DNA of 64,000 nucleotides, taken from NCBI RefSeq assembly GCF_001677475.2, contig NZ_CP015229.1; one strand, 5' to 3'. Below are positions 3,045-64,000 of this stretch, piece after piece. The notes under the pieces are model-generated. The model ran no database searches. It had not been told where the DNA came from and was given only the letters and a program-made list of their open reading frames with translations. Origin of the DNA: Escherichia coli. Lineage in GTDB: Bacteria; Pseudomonadota; Gammaproteobacteria; Enterobacterales; Enterobacteriaceae. Position 1 is the stretch's first letter, and each line of letters starts with the position of its first letter. Made by a program: the position numbers and the translations under genes.

Positions 3045-4178
3045 ATGTCATCACTGAATATTAAACAGGGAAGTGACGCTCATTTTCCTGAGTATCCTCT
3101 GGCGTCGCCCAGTAATAATGAAATTGATTTACTTAATCTAATCGAAGTTTTATGGCGGGCCAAAAAAACGGTCATGGCGGTCGTTTTTGCATTTGCCTGC
3201 GCAGGTTTACTGATCTCTTTCATCCTGCCGCAAAAATGGACCAGCTCAGCCGTTATTACTCCCGCCGAAGCCATTCAGTGGCAGGACCTGGAGAAAACCT
3301 TTACCAAACTCCGCGTTCTTGATCTCGATGTTAATATCGACCGTGGCGGTGCATTTAACCTGTTTATCAAGAAGTTTCAGTCGGTTAGCTTGCTGGAAGA
3401 GTACCTACGTTCATCACCTTATGTGATGGACCAATTAAAAGAGGCGAAAATCGACGAACTGGATTTGCATCGCGCAATTGTCGCATTGAGCGAAAAAATG
3501 AAAGCGGTTGATGACAATGCCAGTAAGAAAAAAGATGAACCGTCACTGTATACCTCCTGGACGCTAACTTTTACCGCACCAACCAGTGAAGAAGCGAAGA
3601 CCGTTTTGAGCGGGTATATCGATTATATCTCTGCGTTGGTGGTGAAAGAGTCGATAGAAAACGTCCGTAATAAACTGGAGATCAAAACCCAGTTTGAAAA
3701 AGAAAAACTGGCTCAGGATCGCATTAAAACGAAAAATCAACTTGATGCAAACATTCAGCGCCTCAATTATTCACTCGACATTGCCAACGCGGCAGGAATT
3801 AAAAAGCCCGTATACAGTAATGGTCAGGCCGTTAAAGATGACCCCGATTTCTCTATTTCTCTCGGCGCAGACGGTATTGAACGCAAACTGGAAATTGAAA
3901 AAGCGGTCACTGACGTTGCGGAACTGAACGGTGAATTACGTAATCGTCAGTATCTTGTTGAGCAGTTAACAAAAGCAAATATCAACGATGTGAATTTTAC
4001 GCCATTTAAATATCAGTTAAGCCCGTCATTGCCAGTGAAAAAAGACGGTCCGGGTAAGGCGATTATTGTGATCCTTTCCGCGTTGATCGGCGGAATGGTG
4101 GCTTGTGGTGGCGTGCTGTTGCGCCATGCGATGGCATCCAGAAAACAGGATGCCATGATGGCAGACCACTTAGTTTAA
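3045..4178 (+). CDS. fepE: Polysaccharide co-polymerase (Wzz-like chain-length regulator)
   Basis: 377-aa ORF with N- and C-terminal hydrophobic segments flanking a long coiled periplasmic region; position between entF and fepC. Confidence 0.9.
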   Translation: MSSLNIKQGSDAHFPEYPLASPSNNEIDLLNLIEVLWRAKKTVMAVVFAFACAGLLISFILPQKWTSSAVITPAEAIQWQDLEKTFTKLRVLDLDVNIDRGGAFNLFIKKFQSVSLLEEYLRSSPYVMDQLKEAKIDELDLHRAIVALSEKMKAVDDNASKKKDEPSLYTSWTLTFTAPTSEEAKTVLSGYIDYISALVVKESIENVRNKLEIKTQFEKEKLAQDRIKTKNQLDANIQRLNYSLDIANAAGIKKPVYSNGQAVKDDPDFSISLGADGIERKLEIEKAVTDVAELNGELRNRQYLVEQLTKANINDVNFTPFKYQLSPSLPVKKDGPGKAIIVILSALIGGMVACGGVLLRHAMASRKQDAMMADHLV

Positions 4179-4990
4179 ATATTTGCGGTTGAAGGTGCCG
4201 TTCGTCCGAGCGGCACCACGAGCGGCGTTCCGGCTACCGGATCGTCAATTATCATGCAGCGCAGACCATAAATGCGCTCGATCAATTCAGCAGTGACAAT
4301 CTCCTTCGGCGCTCCCTGAGCAATAATTTTCCCTTCCCGCAATGCAATCAAATGGCTGGCGTAACGACAGGCCTGGTTAAGATCGTGCAGCACTGCCGCC
4401 AGGGTATAGCCTTTCTCACGGTTCAGTTCGCTCAACAGTTCCAGTAGATCAATCTGATGACTGATATCCAGCCAGGTCGTTGGTTCGTCGAGCAGCATAA
4501 TTGCCGTTTCCTGGGCCAGCACCATCGCGATCCACGCTCGCTGGCGTTGTCCACCAGAAAGGGTATCCACGCTTTGATTTGCCAGATGAGTTATTCCCGT
4601 GGCCTGCATCGCTTTCGTTACCGCTTCTTCATCTTCTTTGCGCCAGCGGGTAAACAGCGGTTGATGCGGGTAACGTCCACGCGCCACCAGCTCCTGCACG
4701 GTGATATCGCCCGGCGTGGTAGCATTTTGCGCCAACAGACCAATCCGGCGTGCAACCTCTTTACTGGCGTAATGTTGAATGTGCTCACCATCCAGCCAGA
4801 CATGCCCGTGAGCAGGCGTCATCAGGCGGCTTAAAGTACGCAGTAAAGTGGATTTACCGCAGCCATTTGGCCCGATAATTGCCGTGAAGTGACCATCAGG
4901 TATTTCTACAGTCAGATTTTCCGCAACGGTATATTTGCCATATCCGAGGGTTAACTGTTCGCCGCGCAAACGGGCTACTGATTCGGTCAT
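4175..4990 (-). CDS. fepC: Ferric enterobactin ABC transporter ATP-binding protein
   Basis: ORF-track frame trimmed to internal ATG (MTESV...). Walker A GPNGCGKST, ABC signature LSGGQRQR, Walker B LLDEPT. ATGA overlap with fepG. Confidence 0.93.
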   Translation of the reverse strand: MTESVARLRGEQLTLGYGKYTVAENLTVEIPDGHFTAIIGPNGCGKSTLLRTLSRLMTPAHGHVWLDGEHIQHYASKEVARRIGLLAQNATTPGDITVQELVARGRYPHQPLFTRWRKEDEEAVTKAMQATGITHLANQSVDTLSGGQRQRAWIAMVLAQETAIMLLDEPTTWLDISHQIDLLELLSELNREKGYTLAAVLHDLNQACRYASHLIALREGKIIAQGAPKEIVTAELIERIYGLRCMIIDDPVAGTPLVVPLGRTAPSTANI

Positions 4991-5979
4991 TTTTTGCGAG
5001 ACTCCTGAATTAACAAGACGATAAGGTAAATACCGCCGAGGCTGACGGTAACGACGCCAACCGGAAGTTGATACGGCATAAACAGTTGTTGGGCGCAGAG
5101 ATCGGCCGCCAGCAGTAACAGCGCCCCGCACAGCGCCGCCTGGGTCAGCCCCCAGCGAGCGGTGCCGCTAATGCGTCGGGCAATGTGCGGCGCGACTAAA
5201 GCAATAAAGGAAATCGGCCCGGCAAGCGCTGTTGCCGCAGCGGTAAGCACCACTGCAACCAGCATCATTAATAGACGCGAACGTTCGACGCTGACGCCCA
5301 GCGCACACGCGGTATCATCGCCCATCTCCAGCAAGCGCATTCGCCGCACCAGTAAGGCGGCGGCAATGAGCATCAATATAATGATGGGGGCGGAAGGCGA
5401 GGTTTTTGCCCACGTCAGGCCGTTGAGCGATCCGGCATTCCACAAACCTGCTGTTAGCGCCGTTTCTAAAGACGCTTTCAGCAACAGCCAGGTATTAAAG
5501 GCCACCAGCATGGCGCGAACACCGATACCGATAATAATCAACCGAAAGGTGTCGATGCCGTTACGCCAGGCGAGCAGCCAGACCAACAGCGAAGTGACAA
5601 TGCCGCCCATCATTGCTGCCAGCGCGATAGCCGTCAGGTCCTGACCAAACAGCACCATCGCCACCAGCACGCCGCTCCACGCCCCGGTGTTAAAACCCAT
5701 TACGTCAGGGCTGCCGAGCGGGTTACGCATCAGCGACTGAAAAATCGCGCCGCTGACGCCCAGCGCCGCGCCAATCAACAGCGCCATCAGCACGCGTGGT
5801 AAACGCCATTCGGTGACCACCATCGTCATACTGCGCGGCGCATCGCCCATCAGCGCGGCGAATACCTGCGAGGTTTCCAGCGTGACGGCACCGCTGCGTA
5901 ATCCCCAGATACCTGCAACCACACAGGCGGAAATCAGCAGCAAACAGGTGATGAGTAATCGGCGAGAGACGTAAATCAT
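4987..5979 (-). CDS. fepG: Ferric enterobactin ABC transporter permease
   Basis: 330-aa polytopic membrane ORF of the FecCD permease type; 4-nt overlaps with fepC and fepD. Confidence 0.93.
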   Translation of the reverse strand: MIYVSRRLLITCLLLISACVVAGIWGLRSGAVTLETSQVFAALMGDAPRSMTMVVTEWRLPRVLMALLIGAALGVSGAIFQSLMRNPLGSPDVMGFNTGAWSGVLVAMVLFGQDLTAIALAAMMGGIVTSLLVWLLAWRNGIDTFRLIIIGIGVRAMLVAFNTWLLLKASLETALTAGLWNAGSLNGLTWAKTSPSAPIIILMLIAAALLVRRMRLLEMGDDTACALGVSVERSRLLMMLVAVVLTAAATALAGPISFIALVAPHIARRISGTARWGLTQAALCGALLLLAADLCAQQLFMPYQLPVGVVTVSLGGIYLIVLLIQESRKK

Positions 5980-6980
5980 GCACCACCTCGCGTTTTACGT
6001 CGCACGAGGAAGATTAGCACCGGTGCACCAATAAACGCACTGACCACAGAAACGCGCAACTCGCCGGGCACAATCACCCGCCCGATGATATCGGCAAACA
6101 GCAGCAGGGCAGGGGTGGCGAGTAGCGTGACGGGCAGCGACCAGCGATGATCGGCACCCACCAGCCAACGCGCCATATGCGGCATCATCAGGCCAATAAA
6201 GGCAATCGGGCCAACTACCGCTGTCGCACTACCACAAAGCACGGTAATCGCCAGCAGACCAATTAACTGTGTGCGCGCCACGCGACTGCCCAGCGCCGTC
6301 GCGGTGTCGCTGCCGAGGCTTAAACTGTTCAGTGCGCGGCTCAGTAATAGCGCGGTTGCTCCGGCGACCAGCACCGGGATCAGCACCACTTTTAAGGTAT
6401 GTAGATTGCGAATATCCAGCGAACCGGCTTGCCAGAAACGTAGTTGATCGTAGACGTCAGGATTAAGCAGGGCGATGCCGCTGGTCAGCCCTTCCAGCAC
6501 CGCCGCCAGCGCCACGCCCGCCAGGGTTAAACGCACCGGACTTAACTGCCCGCCGCCCTGGCTGCCGGTAAAGGCAACAATCAACGAGGCCACCAGCGCC
6601 CCGGCGAAGGCCATCGCCAGTTGTTCCTGTGCGGAAGAGTAACCAAACAGCGCCGCACCCAGCACAATGGCAAAGCTGGCTCCGGCGTTCACGCCAAGCA
6701 AGCCGGGGTCGGCAAGTGGATTTCGGGTGAGGGTTTGCATCAACGCCCCGGCAAGGCCAAGCGCGCCGCCTGCAAGTAAACCGGCAAGGGTGCGCGGCAG
6801 TCGCGCGTCGAGCACGATGGTGCAGTCGGCGCTCTGACAGGTGCCGGAGAGGGCCTCCAGCACTACGGAAGCGGGGAGTGATTTTGCCCCAATGAGCAGG
6901 CTTAATGCCGTCGCGATAATCAGTAATAACAGCAATCCGGGCACGGCAATGGCGCGTGTCACGGCAACAGAACCAGACAT
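5976..6980 (-). CDS. fepD: Ferric enterobactin ABC transporter permease
   Basis: ORF-track frame trimmed to second ATG (MSGSVAV...), which has GGAAG 5 nt upstream. The first ATG directly abuts the Fur box. Confidence 0.9.
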   Translation of the reverse strand: MSGSVAVTRAIAVPGLLLLLIIATALSLLIGAKSLPASVVLEALSGTCQSADCTIVLDARLPRTLAGLLAGGALGLAGALMQTLTRNPLADPGLLGVNAGASFAIVLGAALFGYSSAQEQLAMAFAGALVASLIVAFTGSQGGGQLSPVRLTLAGVALAAVLEGLTSGIALLNPDVYDQLRFWQAGSLDIRNLHTLKVVLIPVLVAGATALLLSRALNSLSLGSDTATALGSRVARTQLIGLLAITVLCGSATAVVGPIAFIGLMMPHMARWLVGADHRWSLPVTLLATPALLLFADIIGRVIVPGELRVSVVSAFIGAPVLIFLVRRKTRGGA

Positions 6981-55541: not shown

Positions 55542-58124
55542 TTAGCCAACGACCAGATTGAGGAGTTTACCCGGTACGTAAATCACTTTACGCACGGTAA
55601 CGCCATCAAGATATTTTGCTACCAGATGTTCCTGGCCAGCACGTTCGCGAACCTGTTCTTCCGTTGCATCTACCGGAACGGTGATTTTGGCACGGACTTT
55701 ACCGTTAACCTGCACCACCACCAGCGTGGAATCTTCCACCATCGCTTTCTCGTCTGCAACCGGCCACGGCGCGTTGTCGATATCGCCTTCGCCTTTCAGT
55801 TCCTGCCACAGCGTGAAGCAGATGTGCGGCGTGAACGGGTTAAGCATACGAACAACGGCCAGCAGGGCTTCCTGCATCAGCGCGCGATCCTGCTCACCAT
55901 CGGTCGGTGCTTTTGCCAGTTTGTTCATCAGCTCCATAATCGCCGCAATTGCAGTGTTAAAGGTCTGACGACGACCGATATCATCGGTCACTTTAGCGAT
56001 AGTTTTATGAACATCACGACGCAGAGCTTTCTGATCTTCAGTCAGTGCGTCAACGTTCAGCGCCGCAACATCACCTTTCGCAGTGTGCTCGTAAACCAGT
56101 TTCCAGACACGTTTCAGGAAGCGGTTAGCCCCTTCAACGCCGGACTCCTGCCATTCGAGAGTCATATCCGCCGGAGAAGCGAACATCATAAACAGACGAA
56201 CGGTGTCCGCGCCGTAACGTTCAACCATCACCTGCGGGTCGATACCGTTGTTCTTCGACTTAGACATTTTGCTCATGCCGGTATACACCAGTTCATGGCC
56301 TGCCGCGTCTTTCGCTTTCACGATACGGCCTTTCTCGTCGCGCTCAACGATAGCATCAACCGGGGAAACCCAGTTACGTTCGCCGTTTTCGCCTACATAG
56401 TAGAAGGCATCTGCCAGCACCATCCCCTGACACAGCAGCTGTTTCGCTGGCTCGTCAGAGTTCACCATGCCTGCATCACGCATCAGTTTGTGGAAGAAGC
56501 GGAAGTAGAGCAGGTGCATGATGGCGTGTTCGATACCACCAATGTAGATATCCACTGGCAGCCAGTAGTTAGCTGCTTTGGAATCCAGCATACCCTCTTT
56601 GTACTCCGGGCAAGTGTAGCGCGCATAGTACCAGGAGGACTCCATAAAGGTGTCGAAAGTATCGGTTTCACGCAGTGCCGGCATACCATTAACGGTGGTT
56701 TTCGCCCACTCAGGATCTGCTTTGATCGGGCTGGTAATACCATCCATTACCACATCTTCCGGCAGGATCACCGGCAACTGGTCGTCCGGAGTAGGCATCA
56801 CAGTGCCGTCCTCCAGCGTCACCATCGGAATCGGTGCGCCCCAGTAACGCTGACGGGAAACACCCCAGTCGCGCAGGCGATAGTTTACTTTACGCTCGCC
56901 AACGCCCATTGCCGTCAATTTGTCGGCAATGGCGTTAAAGGCCGCTTCATGGTCAAGACCGTTGAACTCGCCAGAGTTGAACAGCACGCCTTTTTCAGTC
57001 AGGGCTTGCTGAGAAAGATCTGGCTCAGAGCCGTCAGCTGCCAGGATAACCGGTTTGATATTCAGGCCGTATTTAGAGGCAAACTCGTAGTCGCGCTGGT
57101 CGTGACCCGGAACCGCCATAACTGCGCCCGTGCCGTATTCCATCAATACGAAGTTTGCTGCCCAAACGGGAATTTCTTCGCCCGTTAATGGGTGAACCGC
57201 TTTAAAGCCAGTATCGACGCCTTTTTTCTCCATCGTCGCCATTTCAGCTTCGGCAACTTTGGTGTTACGGCATTCGTCAATAAAGGCCGCCAGTTCAGGA
57301 TTATTTTCCGCCGCTTTCTGCGCCAGCGGATGACCCGCAGCTACCGCCAGGTAGGTACAACCCATAAAGGTGTCCGGGCGGGTAGTGTAAACGGTCAGCG
57401 TGTTGTCATAGTCGTTAACGTTGAAGGTGATCTCCACGCCTTCGGAACGACCGATCCAGTTACGCTGCATGGTTTTAACGGTGTCTGGCCAGTGATCCAG
57501 TTTATCCAGATCGTTGAGCAGCTCGTCAGCGTAAGCGGTGATTTTGATAAACCACTGCGGGATCTCTTTACGCTCAACTTTGGTATCGCAGCGCCAGCAG
57601 CAGCCGTCGATAACTTGTTCGTTCGCCAGTACGGTCTGGTCGTTCGGGCACCAGTTGACCGCAGAAGTCTTCTTATATACCAGGCCTTTTTTATACAGCT
57701 CGGTGAAGAATTTCTGTTCCCAACGGTAGTATTCCGGCGTACAGGTTGCCAGCTCGCGGCTCCAGTCATAACCAAAGCCCAGCATTTTGAGCTGGTTTTT
57801 CATATACGCGATGTTGTCGTACGTCCACGGTGCCGGAGCGGTGTTGTTTTTCACCGCCGCGCCTTCCGCAGGCAGACCAAACGCGTCCCAGCCGATCGGC
57901 TGCAGAACGTTTTTGCCCAGCATGCGCTGGTAACGGGCGATCACGTCACCGATGGTGTAGTTACGTACGTGGCCCATGTGTAGTCGACCAGAAGGATAGG
58001 GAAGCATAGACAGGCAGTAATACTTCTCTTTGCTCTCGTCTTCGGTTACTTCAAATGTGCGCTTCTCATCCCAATGAAGCTGTACTTTGGATTCTATCTC
58101 TTCCGGGCGGTATTGCTCTTGCAT
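55542..58124 (-). CDS. leuS: Leucine--tRNA ligase
   Basis: Trimmed to ATG at 58124 ([10 protein letters not shown]...); class I motifs HMGH and KMSKS. Confidence 0.97.
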
Positions 58125-58359
58125 GGCAGCCAGTGGTCCTGTTTTCATTACGGCTACAAAAGTAGCGTTAGAGGTGGTTTTTCAGATCCGCATAGCATAG
58201 CCCAAACGTCCGCGTCAAAACAGCCTTTCGCGCACTCGACGTTGAAATGATGCCCGGATTATTCATACATTAATTTACAGAGTTTGTGGGCGTATTAGCA
58301 AAGCAAGGAACAAAGAACGTCTATTATTATAGTCAGTTAACGACCCGGGAGATGAAACG

Positions 58360-58842
58360 ATGAACAAGGTTGCTCAATATTACCGTGAACTGGTCGCGTC
58401 ACTGAGCGAACGCCTGCGTAATGGCGAACGTGATATCGACGCACTGGTGGAACAGGCGCGCGAGCGCGTAATAAAAACAGGGGAGTTAACGCGAACCGAG
58501 GTCGATGAGCTGACGCGAGCTGTCAGACGTGACCTGGAAGAGTTCGCCATGAGCTATGAAGAGAGCCTGAAAGAAGAATCTGACAGCGTCTTTATGCGGG
58601 TGATTAAAGAAAGCTTATGGCAGGAGCTGGCAGACATCACCGATAAAACGCAGCTTGAATGGCGCGAAGTTTTCCAGGACCTCAATCATCACGGGGTTTA
58701 TCACAGCGGAGAAGTGGTAGGGCTGGGAAATCTGGTCTGCGAGAAATGTCACTTCCATCTCCCAATCTACACACCGGAAGTGCTGACGCTATGCCCGAAA
58801 TGTGGTCATGATCAGTTCCAGAGACGCCCGTTCGAGCCGTAA
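58360..58842 (+). CDS. ybeL: DUF1451 family protein with C-terminal CxxC pairs
   Basis: 160 aa; two Cys pairs (CEKCH ... CPKCGH). Confidence 0.9.
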   Translation: MNKVAQYYRELVASLSERLRNGERDIDALVEQARERVIKTGELTRTEVDELTRAVRRDLEEFAMSYEESLKEESDSVFMRVIKESLWQELADITDKTQLEWREVFQDLNHHGVYHSGEVVGLGNLVCEKCHFHLPIYTPEVLTLCPKCGHDQFQRRPFEP

Positions 58843-58875
58843 TAGTCTGATTTCGCACAGCAATAAAGAGAATAT

Positions 58876-58908
58876 GGGCCGAATGAAATTCCCCGGCCCT
58901 TGTTTTTA
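58876..58908 (+). terminator. Intrinsic terminator of ybeL
   Basis: gggccg...cggccc stem followed by ttgttttta. Confidence 0.55.
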
Positions 58909-58911
58909 TCT

Positions 58912-59889
58912 CTACAGTAAATCTTCAATCTCACGAATTTCTTGACTGACATCTCTGGTTCCGGATGACTGAACTTTACGATACAGGTCGAGAGCCTGTC
59001 GGAGATCGACAGGTCTTCCTTCTCCGTAGTGATACATAATGGCCAGGTTATACCAGGCAGTGGCGTCATTGCATTCAGCGGCTTTCGTAAACCATTCAAA
59101 GGCGGCCTGATAATCTTTCTCAACGCCTTGTCCGTGTTTATACATATAACCGATGTTGACGTAAGCGCCGACGCTCCCCTGAGCGGCAGCCTTCAGATAC
59201 CAGTACATCGCTTGCTTATAGTCCTGGTCCACCCCTTCGCCAGCGTTATAATCCCATGCAATTTGAAACTGAGCATGCCGATTACCCTGCTGTGCGCTTT
59301 TCAAATACCAGAATGCGGCGAGTGTCTCGTTTTGAGCGACGCCTTTTCCGTCTTCATAAAGATCGGCCAGATTGTTTTGCGCGTCACTATGGCCTTGTAA
59401 TGCAGCTTGTTTGTACCAGAAAAATGCCAGCGTATAGTCTTGTGCGACTCCGTTGCCATTTCTGTACATCCACCCAAGATTATTTTGCGCATAAGACATT
59501 CCGCTCTCCGCGGCTATCTGATACCAGGCAACCGCTTCTTTATAGTTGGGGTCTTCTCCACGATCCAGTATCCAGCCAAGGGCGTTGGAAGCGAAAGTAT
59601 GGCCTTGTAGGGCAGCTTTTTTCAGCCAAAAGATGGCTTGCTCATTATCTTTATGACGGCTTTTATCCTCGGAGTATTTCCGCCCTAAGGAATATTGTGC
59701 TTCACAATGGCTTTGCTCAGCGGCCAGCTTCAGCCAGTAAAAGGCCTTTTCGTCGTCCGGAGAGTCAATTGCGCTATCGCGATTATAATAAAACCCAATA
59801 ATATATTGAGCCTCGCAATCGCCTTTTTCAGCACGTTCGATAATCTCATCTATTGATAAATTATCGCAGCAACTTGACGTAAAAATCAT
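58912..59889 (-). CDS. ybeQ: Sel1-repeat (TPR-like) protein
   Basis: Repeated Sel1 units (e.g. AQYSLGRKY, AQNNLGWMYRNG); start set at the second ATG, which has better AAGGA spacing. Confidence 0.85.
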   Translation of the reverse strand: MIFTSSCCDNLSIDEIIERAEKGDCEAQYIIGFYYNRDSAIDSPDDEKAFYWLKLAAEQSHCEAQYSLGRKYSEDKSRHKDNEQAIFWLKKAALQGHTFASNALGWILDRGEDPNYKEAVAWYQIAAESGMSYAQNNLGWMYRNGNGVAQDYTLAFFWYKQAALQGHSDAQNNLADLYEDGKGVAQNETLAAFWYLKSAQQGNRHAQFQIAWDYNAGEGVDQDYKQAMYWYLKAAAQGSVGAYVNIGYMYKHGQGVEKDYQAAFEWFTKAAECNDATAWYNLAIMYHYGEGRPVDLRQALDLYRKVQSSGTRDVSQEIREIEDLL

Positions 59890-60052
59890 TATCATTTCCT
59901 TATGGTTGTAGATAAAACATATTATATTTTTATGTGTTCCATTTTTGCGTAAACCTTATTTTATGCGTATTATGTTGCGTCAGAAAAGTATAAATAAATG
60001 AGCCTCGCAACGTGGTTAATATTCATTGAATGAATATTTAAGGATAAATTAT

Positions 60053-60759
60053 ATGGACATGGAGTCGCAAAAAATATTGTTTGCACTTTCCACTCCGATG
60101 GAAATACGCAATAAATGCTGTTTACCTTCGCATTCATCCCCCAAAATGTATTTAGGTACATGCTTTTTGACCTTTCTTCCTCATGGGGAATTGATGGCCG
60201 TGATGACCTGCTGCGCACAATTCACCGAATGATCGATAACGGTCATGCCGCGCGGTTGGCAGGGCTTTATCACCGCTGGTTTCGTTATTCTCCGTGTGAA
60301 TGGCGTGACTATCTTGCTGAACTAAATGAGCAAGGTCAGGCTTATGCGCAATTTGTCGCCAGCACCGCCGAATGCTGTGGCGAAGGGGGAATCAAAGCCT
60401 GGGATTATGTCCGGATGGGTTTTTTAAGCCGAATGGGCGTACTTAATAACTGGTTGAGCGAAGAAGAAAGTCTATGGATCCAGTCGCGCATTCATCTACG
60501 GGCGCTACGTTATTATAGTAACTGGCAGCAATACTTTGCCGGTTATACCTTTGGTCGGCAATATTGGCAGTCTCCCGAAGATGATAATCTTCAGTTATTA
60601 CGTGAATTCTTAGCGCGTAAAGAATACGACGATTCCGGCAATGATATGTTTTATCAATTATTTGCCAGTGATGATGCGTATTACCCTACCTTGTCCTGGC
60701 AACCATTGGCTTACTATTCTGCATGCCCGGAAACGCTTAAGGATATGAGCGACCTATGA
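60053..60759 (+). pseudogene. ybeR: DUF1266 family gene disrupted by a -1 frameshift in a T-run
   Basis: N-terminal 38 codons (60053..) and the C-terminal body (ORF 60115-60759) are in different frames. Alignment to the intact paralog ybeU shows the break at the T5 run 60164-60168. Confidence 0.75.
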
Positions 60760-62183
60760 AAAATTGCTGGCAGATCCTCGATATATCTCAAACGACTGAC
60801 GTCGATATTATCCGCCGCGCTTATCTGGCGCTGTTACCGTCCTTTCATCCAGAAACCGATCCGCAGGGTTTTAAACAACTTCGTCAGGCGTATGAGGATG
60901 CGCTACGGATTGCGCAGTCGCCTGCTAAATCTGTTTGGCAACCAGAAGAATATGAGGTAGCAGAACATGAAATTCTGCTCGCCTTTCGCGCGTTACTTGC
61001 CTCTGATAGCGAACGTTTTCTGCCCTCCGCCTGGCAGCGATTCATTCAGCAATTAAATTATTGCTCGATGGAAGAGATTGATGAATTACGCTGGTCGCTG
61101 TGCACAATCGCCATGAACACTGCCCATTTATCCTTCGAGTGCGTGGTGTTATTAGCAGAAAGATTGCGGTGGTTGCAGGAGGAAAACGTCGGGGAAATAG
61201 ACGAAGAAGAACTGGAATCCTTTTTATATGCCATTGCGAAGGGGAATGTTTTTAACTTCCAGACCATTCTGCATCTGCACGTTGCCGTGCAAAATGACAC
61301 TATCGATTTTTACCAAATGTTCGCTCGGATTTGGTTATCGCATCCAGAATGGCTGACATTGTATTTAGCGCAACATCGCGCAGTGATTATCCCCGATGAT
61401 GCAAAACTGCACAGAAATTTACTCCGCTGGTATAGCGCAGGTCGCCTGGGAATCCCCGAACTCCTGGATTACGCCCGGTCGTGGCGGGAAGCTGAACCTG
61501 ATAATGAAGATGCGCGTTATTATGAATACGCACAACGCGTCTATTGTGGAGAAGGCGAAAGCTTGCTGGCAGAACTTTGTGACTACTGGCGCGAGTATCC
61601 CTCCACCCAGGCGGATGCTTTAATGTTGCAATGGTGCCGTCAGCATCGGGTCGATTATTACCCGTTAGTGGTGATGATGATTGAAGCTCGTGAACTGGTT
61701 AACGATCAGGGAAAACCGCTACTTTATATCCCCGGCGACAGCGCCCGTACGCGTTTTCATTTATACGAAATACTCAGCGATGAAAAACTCTCTGCTCTGG
61801 GGCGTTCACTGGTCGAGATGGTTTTGCACAAAGGACGTAAGCCGCGAATCTCACTCACGCGTGATACAGAACATCCCTTATGGCCATTATATTTAGTTGC
61901 TAAACAATTAGTTCAGGCCAGCCAACCGACAGAAGAATCATTAATGCCGATTGTGAGCCGCCTTGATGCAGAAGCTCGTTGTCCACTGGAAGCATTAATG
62001 ATTCGTCGATTATTAATTCAGGCGGCAAATTTTACCGAGAAGCAAACCGTCGAACCGGAGCCGCAACCGCAGCCAATGCCCGTTGACGATGGTGGGCCGG
62101 GCTGTCTGGGCGTCATCAAAATTATTTTCTACATTTTTATCTTTGCCGGTTTGATAGGGAAAATACTCCATCTGTTCGGGTGA
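60756..62183 (+). CDS. djlB: J-domain (DnaJ-like) membrane-anchored co-chaperone
   Basis: 475 aa; N-terminal J-domain; C-terminal hydrophobic anchor; ATGA overlap with ybeR. Confidence 0.9.
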
Positions 62184-62192
62184 CAGTCGACG

Positions 62193-62747
62193 TTAATGTG
62201 CGGGAAGCCCGGCAAGTAATCTTTCCGCATTTTTGTAATGTTGTTTGGCGGCCAGTTTTAACCATTTTTGAGATTCATAATGGTTAACATTAATACCTGA
62301 GCCATTTCTGTAGATCAAACCCAAAGTATATTGAGCATGAGCATACCCTTGTTCAGCTGCTTCCTTATACCAGAGAATTGCTTTACGGGTATCGGGTTTG
62401 ACCCCCAGACCTTTGAGGTAGATCCACCCCAGTTTACTTTGCGCGCGTGGATTTTCCTGTTCCGCTGATTGCTCATACCAGTATCTCGCCTGTGTATAAT
62501 CCAGTGGTTTACCGTCGCTACCATGAAGATAAAATTCTCCAAGTCGATATTGCGACGTTGAGTGACCATGAATCGCGGAAAGCTCTGTGGCTGCCGTGGT
62601 GAATGGAAGACTGCCCGGTGAGCTTAAATAATCAAAGGCATAATTCGCCATGGCTTTATCACGCAACGTCGTTTTCTTGGGTTGGCTAATACAGGTTATT
62701 GCTGCAACTATAAATATTGCGAATATATACATTAATTTTTTATTCAT
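62193..62747 (-). CDS. ybeT: Sel1-repeat protein
   Basis: 184 aa; signal-peptide-like N-terminus; Sel1 units ([24 protein letters not shown]). Confidence 0.88.
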
Positions 62748-62848
62748 GTGTGAATACTTCGATTTTCTTTTTATTTTGAAAGCGTCAAGTTTATACTCAT
62801 CAATAATAAAAAAGTAGTCAGTTAATGCACTTAAGGGATTATTAACAA

Positions 62849-63556
62849 ATGAACAAGGAAGAACAATATCTTCTTTTTGCGCTTTCTGCGCCCATGGAAA
62901 TACTTAATCAGGGTTGCAAACCCGCGCATGACTCGCCAAAAATGTATACCGGGATAAAAGAATTCGATCTCTCATCATCCTGGGGAATAAATAATCGTGA
63001 TGATTTAATTCACACTATTTATCAGATGACCGATGATGGTCATGCTAATGATTTAGCTGGCTTATATCTGACATGGCATCGCTCTTCCCCTGAAGAGTGG
63101 AAAGCATTAATTGCTGGCGGCTCGGAGAGAGGGTTGATTTATACCCAATTCGTTGCCCAAACCGCTATGTGTTGTGGGGAAGGGGGAATCAAAGCCTGGG
63201 ATTATGTGCGGATGGGTTTTTTATCACGGGTTGGTGTGCTCAACAAGTGGCTGACGGAAGACGAGAGTTTATGGCTGCAATCGCGCGTCTATATACGAGC
63301 ACACCATTACTATCACAGCTGGATGCACTATTTTTCCGCCTATTCGTTAGGGCGTCTCTACTGGCAATCTTCTCAGTGCGAAGACAACGCTTCGCTACGC
63401 GAGGCGCTAACCCTGTACAAATACGATAGCGCCGGGAGTCGGATGTTCGAAGAGCTGGCAGCGGGAAGCGATCGTTTCTATGCCACGCTTCCCTGGCAGC
63501 CATTAACTGTCCAGCCTGAATGCCCGGTAACGCTTAAGGATGTGAGCGGCCTATGA
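62849..63556 (+). CDS. ybeU: DUF1266 family protein (intact paralog of ybeR)
   Basis: 235 aa; high identity to the ybeR translation (e.g. [20 protein letters not shown] identical). Confidence 0.88.
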
Positions 63557-64000
63557 AAACATGTTGGCAAATCCTCGAAATTGAAAGCACGACGCAAATA
63601 GACATTATCCGCCAGGCTTATCTTGCTCGCTTACCGTTGTGTCATCCCGAAACCGATCCGCAGGGGTTTAAAGCATTACGCCAGGCCTATGAAGAGGCGC
63701 TGCGACTGGCGGTAAATCCTGTCGAGGAAGCAGATAATGAAGAAAAAGATGCCACCGCTGAACATGAAATACTACGAGCATTCAGGACATTACTGGATTC
63801 AGAAAGTGATCGTTTTCAGCCCTCCGCCTGGCAGAAATTTATTCAGCAATTAAATACCTGGAACATGGAGGATGTCGATCAATTACGCTGGCCGCTGTGT
63901 GCAATCGCTATAGAAGCGCGATATCTTTCATTAAATTGTGCTTCTTTGCTGGCAGAGCGTTTGAACTGGCATTCGTTTAATGACAGCGAAGGAATGGATG
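63553..64000 (+). CDS. djlC: J-domain co-chaperone, 5' portion (3' end lies outside the window)
   Basis: ATG at 63553 overlaps the ybeU stop (ATGA). Translation [40 protein letters not shown]... is paralogous to the djlB N-terminus. Frame open to the window end. Confidence 0.85.

Follow-up and report, generated by a model that had tools for sequence, protein, structure and literature searches.

The last 5 kb of a 64,000-nucleotide stretch of Escherichia coli DNA (contig NZ_CP015229.1; hereafter the window) correspond to the annotated E. coli region from ybeQ to djlC, as seen from the list of open reading frames (ORFs) and from the annotation of the syntenic E. coli genome L001. This region contains two copies of a gene pair, ybeR-djlB (module 1) and ybeU-djlC (module 2), in which a gene for a DUF1266 protein overlaps a gene for a J-domain protein, together with the Sel1-repeat genes ybeQ and ybeT. 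Two of the products have exact protein matches in E. coli records, namely DjlB (GenBank ANO87835.1) and YbeU (ANO87837.1). In L001, djlC goes on for ~1 kb beyond the point at which the window ends and is followed by the convergent gene hscC and then by rihA. The gene hscC lies outside the window and is seen in syntenic E. coli at 97-98% DNA identity. The order ybeQ-ybeR-djlB-ybeT-ybeU-djlC-hscC forms an AT-rich island of 8 kb between ybeL and rihA, of which the window holds the left two-thirds.

The locus, the paralogy of its genes, and the Hsp70 partner are already known. The genes ybeQ, ybeR, djlB, ybeU, and djlC have been presented as a cassette in Salmonella LT2 and E. coli K-12 (PMC6935094), and HscC with DjlB and DjlC as its exclusive, tail-anchored J-proteins of the HPE type has been published (PMC8215388, PMC13254874). 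As far as a review relates the original work (Kluck 2002, in PMC8215388), DjlC stimulates the ATPase of HscC, and the same is assumed for DjlB. Deletions of HscC, DjlB, and DjlC result in sensitivity to Cd2+ and UV, and the clients are not known (PMC8215388, PMC13254874). HscC is the least understood of the three Hsp70s of E. coli, with a purpose that is still obscure after more than 20 years (PMC8215388), and a 2026 review still relies for HscC on the 2002 work alone (PMC13254874). In the searched literature, the DUF1266 genes are not treated as a part of the HscC system, and DUF1266 is named in one paper only, in a gene table.

Duplication of the DUF1266-J pair

The pairs ybeR/djlB and ybeU/djlC are true paralogues, far beyond chance. 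By blastn, 63139-63911 aligns with 60342-61114 over 796 nt at 68.5% identity (E=6e-78). Four direct-repeat blocks with DNA identities of 68-81% share one spacing, exactly 2797 nt, and the block with the highest conservation (81%) covers the stop/start junction. At the protein level, YbeU and YbeR share 59% identity (E=2e-86), and DjlC(1-149) and DjlB share 63% (E=2e-60). The two DUF1266/J blocks, which lie at a constant offset, are thus homologous, as proposed in an earlier description of the window made without database searches (the sequence-only reading), which had named ybeR and ybeU as well as the N-terminal parts of djlB and djlC as paralogues. The ATGA overlaps of stop and start codons that it had placed at 60756-60759 and 63553-63556 are read at exactly these positions.

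In neighbour-joining trees of the DUF1266 and J-proteins, YbeU groups with the second Salmonella copy, YbeR falls with the first copy from Salmonella and the only copy from Klebsiella, and DjlC groups with the second Salmonella J-protein; the duplication is therefore older than the split of Escherichia and Salmonella. The two pairs of Thaumasiovibrio are sisters in the trees, which indicates an independent duplication. This tandem duplication lies at 3409-6785 of the Thaumasiovibrio subtropicus contig L038, in which the N-terminus of the first J-protein (873 aa) lacks a recognisable HPE/J motif, yet the protein keeps a weak DjlB_C_2nd match and a transmembrane (TM) segment.

Within Escherichia, the ratio of nonsynonymous to synonymous substitution rates (dN/dS) is 0.05-0.2 for the island genes of both modules and 0.035 for HscC, and the island genes are thus under purifying selection. 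Protein identity between E. coli and Salmonella is 92-95% for the flanking genes, 83% for HscC, 64% for DUF1266 proteins, 56% for J-proteins, and 53% for YbeQ.

The frameshift in ybeR of the window strain is real but rare and confined to a few strains. One T has been lost from a run of six in comparison with the intact ybeR of L001 (alignment), so that the N-terminal frame ends at the stop codon 60230-60232 and the rest of the gene is found in a 214-aa ORF at 60115-60759. A ybeR remnant of 176 aa is annotated in E. coli as ANO87834.1. Among 3086 complete E. coli genomes with the region, 0 carry the frameshift allele and the best 61-mer identity is 96.8%; the 214-aa product, possible solely with the deletion, occurs on 4 contigs of a large public collection. 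The dN/dS between the window ybeR and intact alleles (0.07-0.14) is no higher than that of the intact copies, and the lesion is therefore recent. Module 1 is likely crippled in the window strain, and the loss of coupled upstream translation probably also lowers the synthesis of DjlB; in module 2, the part within the window is intact. The sequence-only reading had described a duplicated module that is diverging, with one copy already frameshifted. Both the duplication and the frameshift stand, but decay was overstated, as the duplication is old, the genes have the low dN/dS given above, and the allele is rare.

Conservation of the DUF1266-J-HscC cassette

Relatives of the pair were found by a DUF1266 alignment search with one genome per species and on contigs of increasingly distant DUF1266 proteins. 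A profile search with the J-protein alignment was flooded with enteric sequences and failed to extend to distant relatives. All complete loci examined have one gene order, namely DUF1266, a DjlB/C-like J-protein, and an HscC-type Hsp70. The Hsp70 gene is convergent throughout, save on the short contig L035, where it is upstream on the same strand. The cassette is present in four Escherichia lineages, Salmonella, Klebsiella spallanzanii, three Pectobacterium, ~20 Pseudomonas, Vibrio aerogenes, Thaumasiovibrio subtropicus, and several metagenome contigs. A gene table of Dickeya fangzhongdai has the same three genes together, as species-specific genes (PMC6329079). Between genera, solely the DUF1266, J, and HscC genes are common; the flanks differ and consist of ordinary housekeeping genes such as those for a PAS-GGDEF-EAL protein, nitrate/nitrite reductase, RlmJ, and RdgC.

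At the junction of the DUF1266 and J-protein genes, the stop codon of the former overlaps the start codon of the latter as ATGA in 34 homologous pairs and as TAATG in three Pectobacterium loci; in the most distant loci (L035-L038), the overlap is 4 or 14 nt, or a gap of 2 nt separates the genes. The stop/start linkage that had been read from the window alone is thus kept, along with the co-conservation of the two genes, across distant Gammaproteobacteria, which fits a dedicated partnership and translational coupling. The expectation that the J-protein recruits an Hsp70 also holds in that there is an Hsp70 partner, but this partner is not a generic one; it is HscC, encoded just past the window.

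Several of the loci have additional features. In Escherichia sp. MOD1-EC7003, the ybeL/ybeQ interval (L007 1648-3986) carries a third, very divergent, tail-anchored J-protein of the HPE type, split into ORFs of 93 and 344 aa and followed by a secreted protein of 321 aa; neither the window nor any of the E. coli loci examined has this insert. In Salmonella enterica, the hscC/rihA interval (L004 11951-13189) contains an extra gene of 412 aa on the hscC strand, which has no Pfam match and is absent from E. coli. Sequences 95-98% identical to E. coli ybeU are found at a contig end of Paenibacillus sp. USDA918EY (L011) and in a Trichuris trichiura protein named 'DnaJ subfamily C member 13' (AFDB A0A077ZGN2); both look like E. 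coli contamination of the assemblies. The protein P0450, considered as a third paralogue, was rejected as such and is a DjlB allele with an internal deletion.

Properties of the DUF1266 and J-proteins

YbeU matches the Pfam family DUF1266 (PF06889) with E=9.8e-45 over residues 41-216 (model positions 2-175 of 175). Its AlphaFold2 (AF2) model is all-alpha with a predicted local distance difference test (pLDDT) score of 86. YbeU has no TM segment, the structure search found no solved structural relative, and Foldseek against AFDB50 returned only other DUF1266 proteins and E. coli read-through or contaminant fusions. Scans with PADLOC, NCBIfam, and Pfam gave no function for DUF1266 or for the body of DjlB, and the 'putative tRNA ligase' of an old YbeU annotation was rejected, being without any support. 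The DUF1266 domain has an invariant polar signature consisting of DGH, WDxxR, and ES. The wider family comprises 1458 cluster representatives, and the J-linked proteins are accordingly one clade of it. This clade has an N-terminal 'W-L-x-A-L-S-A-P-M' motif and a C-terminal 'P-x-S/T-L' acidic tail (YbeU 1-19 and 216-235), which are not obviously present in the multidomain secreted DUF1266 proteins. The two end motifs could be contact points with the J-protein or HscC.

The match of DjlB to Pfam DnaJ (PF00226) is weak (E=0.0014, 19 bits, residues 4-47), as are its matches to J domains in the PDB (E 0.08-0.9). The AF2 model has three helices within residues 1-55 of DjlC, some DjlB/C orthologues have a precomputed PF00226 match, and orthologues also match the Pfam family PF27158 (DjlB_C_2nd). 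DjlB, DjlC, and every aligned homologue have HPE in place of HPD, the tripeptide between helices II and III that is canonical for J-domain proteins; HPE is the one tolerated variant of HPD and is specific to DjlB/C (PMC13254874, PMC10410713).

DjlB has a single C-terminal TM helix (aa 449-467 of 475) and no N-terminal signal and is thus tail-anchored, and the same is true for DjlC in L001. According to the review, the membrane insertion of DjlC was demonstrated experimentally (Peschke 2018, as related in PMC8215388). Every J-protein of the family carries TM segments at its C-terminus, a single one in enterics and, elsewhere, one to three at the end of a ~900-aa protein, and none of the DUF1266 partners has a TM segment or signal peptide. 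The cytosolic body of DjlB is helical and resembles tetratricopeptide repeats (TPR); Pfam gave no TPR match on DjlB.

The assembly of the two proteins was modelled with AF2 as a fusion of YbeU, a 30-residue linker (GGGGS)6, and DjlC(1-440), with a paired alignment of 15 natural pairs. The model has a mean pLDDT of 81.8 and a predicted template modelling (pTM) score of 0.76, with the linker disordered. An undocked YbeU part would limit the pTM to at most ~0.57 by our own estimate. The value thus suggests a confidently predicted YbeU-DjlC assembly; as indirect evidence, it fits a complex but does not prove it. Apart from this model, read-through YbeU-DjlC fusion ORFs are found in some E. coli assemblies (e.g. 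AFDB A0A2X3M2D5, 627 aa, 'Hsc56 co-chaperone of HscC'); they may be true alleles or may stem from homopolymer or assembly errors at the ATGA junction. One protein cluster at 90% identity mixes DUF1266 proteins of 235 aa and J-proteins of 475 aa, probably because fused YbeU-DjlC records bridge both.

The Sel1-repeat genes ybeQ and ybeT

Pfam finds eight Sel1 repeats (PF08238) in YbeQ and three in YbeT, and the two proteins share ~36% identity in several repeat registers. The DNA matches of ybeT and ybeQ lie at spacings of 2846 and 2525 nt and not at 2797 nt. With these registers and spacings, no shared duplication event is demonstrated for ybeQ and ybeT; an origin of ybeT in the same duplication as ybeU-djlC was considered, and the register of the Sel1 matches gives it neither support nor exclusion. 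Hydropathy places an N-terminal hydrophobic segment at aa 5-23 of YbeT, either an export signal or an anchor, and YbeQ has no hydrophobic segment; the two proteins are not equivalent in topology.

Sel1 genes are seen only in Escherichia (ybeQ and ybeT) and in Salmonella (ybeQ alone, with an orthologue of 53% identity). None of the Klebsiella, Pectobacterium, Pseudomonas, and Vibrio loci examined has a Sel1 gene, and ybeT is absent outside the Escherichia loci. In Salmonella, the two DUF1266-J pairs abut directly, with no ybeT between them. The Sel1 genes are lineage-specific additions outside the core unit. Consequently, of the three-gene module of Sel1, DUF1266, and J-protein genes that the sequence-only reading had described, the DUF1266/J part is homologous and conserved, whereas the Sel1 gene, with its patchy distribution and the differing topology of YbeT and YbeQ, falls outside the conserved unit.

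Distribution, composition, and regulation of the island

The presence of the island was surveyed in 5426 complete RefSeq E. coli genomes. Module 2 is found in 4265 of the 5426 and module 1 in 3712, and ~1025 genomes are without both and have ybeL directly beside rihA. The whole island is thereby accessory, missing in ~19% of complete E. coli genomes, and module 1 is missing in a further ~12%. A common variant has a single deletion that begins midway through ybeQ and stops close to the 3' end of djlB, with loss of ybeR, most of djlB, and the 5' half of ybeQ. An example is FDAARGOS_144 (L002 6613-7078), of the class with 53% coverage, in which ybeT-ybeU-djlC-hscC is intact, and ~650 genomes appear to hold module 2 only. 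For 58300-64000, the best full-length match among these genomes is 98.1% identical, which indicates that the island allele of the window strain is poorly represented among complete RefSeq genomes.

The GC content is 0.43-0.48 in the island genes, 0.27 in the two divergent intergenic regions, and ~0.52 in the flanks. Expression of ybeT and ybeU-djlC is raised by overexpression of SlyA, and the genes belong to the H-NS/SlyA regulon (PMC5797941). A DUF1266 gene of this type of island is strongly repressed by H-NS in enteroaggregative E. coli (EAEC) 042, with ~300-fold de-repression in an hns mutant (PMC7582179).

The features of the region are collected in Table 1. Rfam finds no RNA family in 58000-64000, and a scan for consensus promoters and terminators performed no better than on shuffled sequence, with nothing found in 59896-60052. 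The stop codons of the convergent genes djlB and ybeT are 9 nt apart (62183-62193), which leaves no space for an intergenic terminator, so that the opposing transcripts must overlap or end within coding sequence. The leuS ORF of 868 aa is 8 codons longer than the usual LeuS of 860 aa; the same 868-aa form is in public records of two E. coli strains and is probably a choice of start codon in annotation.

Table 1. Genes and sequence features in the right end of the window.
Feature	Position	Strand	Description
leuS	55542-58148	-	longest ORF, 868 aa
ybeL	58360-58842	+	from ORF and L001 annotation
ybeQ	58912-59895	-	327 aa; cytoplasmic Sel1-repeat protein; RefSeq start 59889; divergent from ybeR; annotated ybeQ in E. 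coli
ybeQ/ybeR intergenic	59896-60052		AT-rich, divergent, GC 0.27; presumed promoter region
ybeR	60053-60759	+	DUF1266 gene of module 1; ATG start 60053; frameshifted here
T5 run	60159-60163	+	site of the 1-nt deletion in ybeR; T6 in intact alleles
ATGA	60756-60759	+	ybeR stop overlaps djlB start
djlB	60756-62183	+	475 aa; tail-anchored class C J-domain protein; annotated djlB
djlB HPE	60846-60854	+	codons 31-33, N-terminal J domain
djlB TM helix	62100-62156	+	C-terminal, aa 449-467
ybeT	62193-62747	-	184 aa; small Sel1-repeat protein; convergent with djlB, divergent from ybeU
ybeT/ybeU intergenic	62748-62848		AT-rich, divergent, GC 0.27
ybeU	62849-63556	+	235 aa; intact soluble DUF1266 protein of module 2
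ATGA	63553-63556	+	ybeU stop overlaps djlC start
djlC 5' part	63553-64000	+	first 149 codons; window ends inside the gene
djlC HPE	63643-63651	+	motif in the J domain of DjlC

A DUF1266 protein as a candidate third component of the HscC system

The comparative result suggests a concrete third component for HscC, as the gene for a DUF1266 protein is always joined to the J-protein gene, and on this genomic pattern DUF1266 is a strong candidate for that role. The reading considered probable here is that the island encodes the third Hsp70 system of E. coli with a core of DUF1266, J-protein, and HscC, in which DUF1266 and the J-protein form a complex and are made by coupled translation. After the tandem duplication of the DUF1266-J pair in an ancestor of Escherichia and Salmonella, one HscC would now be served by two diverged pairs, YbeR-DjlB and YbeU-DjlC. 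The overlap would tie the translation of each J-protein to that of its DUF1266 partner and give matched amounts of the two. The DUF1266 protein and the J-protein would then form a complex on the cytoplasmic side of the inner membrane. There, the J-protein's TPR-like body and its DUF1266 subunit may select or retain the client, and the J domain may switch on the ATPase of HscC.

A stricter form of this proposal can be put forward only tentatively. The DUF1266 proteins of the YbeU/YbeR clade might be obligate, translationally coupled subunits of the membrane-anchored J-proteins of the HPE type, and HscC might act across Gammaproteobacteria as a three-component, membrane-tethered machine in which DUF1266 and the TPR-like body set the choice of client. 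If this is true, the repeated duplication of the pair in enterics and Thaumasiovibrio would give one Hsp70 several client-specific adaptors.

Several points weigh against a DUF1266-J complex as the core of the system. Many DUF1266 proteins are secreted or lipoprotein multidomain forms without a J-protein, and the domain is therefore not intrinsically a part of a co-chaperone. Overlaps of 4 nt are common in bacterial operons, and the third, interrupted J-protein of L007 has no DUF1266 gene upstream. The predicted complex is one pTM value from a shallow alignment of 15 rows, no natural fusion of a J-protein and DUF1266 is found among the 150 best family representatives, and no experiment ties DUF1266 to DjlB/C or HscC. 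In addition, in the account given by the review, DjlC stimulates the HscC ATPase with no requirement for YbeU mentioned (PMC8215388), so that DUF1266 is apparently dispensable for the basic function of the J domain.

The sequence-only reading had named DUF1266 as a likely dedicated client or adaptor of the J-protein, and the support obtained here for a complex is indirect. The co-conservation and the gene order are equally compatible with DUF1266 being a dedicated client, which DjlB/C would hand over to HscC to be folded, remodelled, or brought to the membrane. In HscA-HscB-IscU, a specialised Hsp70 is likewise encoded in one operon with its client (PMC8215388), and the invariant polar signature of DUF1266 could be an active or binding site. 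A role as client is nevertheless unlikely, since synthesis matched by stop/start overlap suits a stable partner better than a catalytically turned-over substrate, the fused model, although indirect evidence, predicts a compact and confident assembly rather than a peptide-like contact, and no independent function of DUF1266 is known.

It is less probable again that DUF1266 is a mere operon neighbour with an unrelated function, for instance as an enzyme, and that the overlap reflects compact packing. Here the general frequency of 4-nt overlaps, the wide occurrence of DUF1266 without J-proteins, and the old annotations as 'putative tRNA ligase' would count in its favour; against them stand the kept junction and order of the cassette.

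The least credible explanation is that the cassette is an anti-phage or conflict system, in which an Hsp70 machine senses or remodels a protein of the invader, which would account for an island that is accessory, silenced by H-NS, and fast-evolving: its presence/absence polymorphism in E. coli, low GC, H-NS repression (PMC7582179, PMC5797941), species-specific occurrence in Dickeya (PMC6329079), E. coli/Salmonella identities of only 53-64% for the J, DUF1266, and YbeQ proteins against 92-95% in the flanks, and recurrent duplication of the pair are opposed by a PADLOC-DB 2.0 scan of seven proteins with no match for YbeR, YbeU, DjlB, DjlC, or HscC and only weak matches of the Sel1 proteins to PtuA with no stretch passing alone, by no relatives in the viral-contig scan, by no nuclease, NADase, pore, or other effector in the cassette, by housekeeping flanks rather than defence islands, by dN/dS well below 1, and by no link of HscC to defence in the searched literature.

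Earlier work may have missed phenotypes of HscC, possibly because the island is silenced by H-NS and is absent from about one-fifth of E. coli, and because the DUF1266 genes were not considered.

Comparison with known Hsp70 systems

The published HscC system is that of the window: HscC (Hsc62) acts with DjlB (YbeS) and DjlC (YbeV, Hsc56), which are the same genes as djlB and djlC here and encode tail-anchored, HPE-containing J-proteins exclusive to HscC. The difference is that ybeR, ybeU, and the Sel1 genes are not mentioned as parts of that system in the descriptions examined and that ybeR is frameshifted in the window strain.

DjlA resembles DjlB/C as a class C J-protein at the inner membrane that brings an Hsp70 there, and this likeness is conceptual. 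Unlike DjlB/C, DjlA has an N-terminal anchor, a C-terminal J domain with HPD, DnaK as its partner, and no DUF1266 partner, and no homology between them is seen outside the J domain. For the body of DjlB, the resemblance to TPR-containing co-chaperones and receptors of Hsp70/Hsp90 (Sti1/Hop, TOM70, Sec72, and CnoX/YbbN) is at the level of the fold only, with 7-13% identity and high root-mean-square deviation.

The HscA-HscB-IscU system of the isc operon differs in that HscB is soluble and has HPD, IscU is an iron-sulfur (Fe-S) scaffold, and the gene order is another one. In contrast to HscB, DjlB/C are membrane-anchored, have a TPR-like body, and are encoded by genes that overlap that of their partner. 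The two systems are alike in that a specialised, low-abundance Hsp70 has its own exclusive J-protein and a third small protein encoded alongside, and in HscA-HscB-IscU it is the third protein that defines what the machine acts on.

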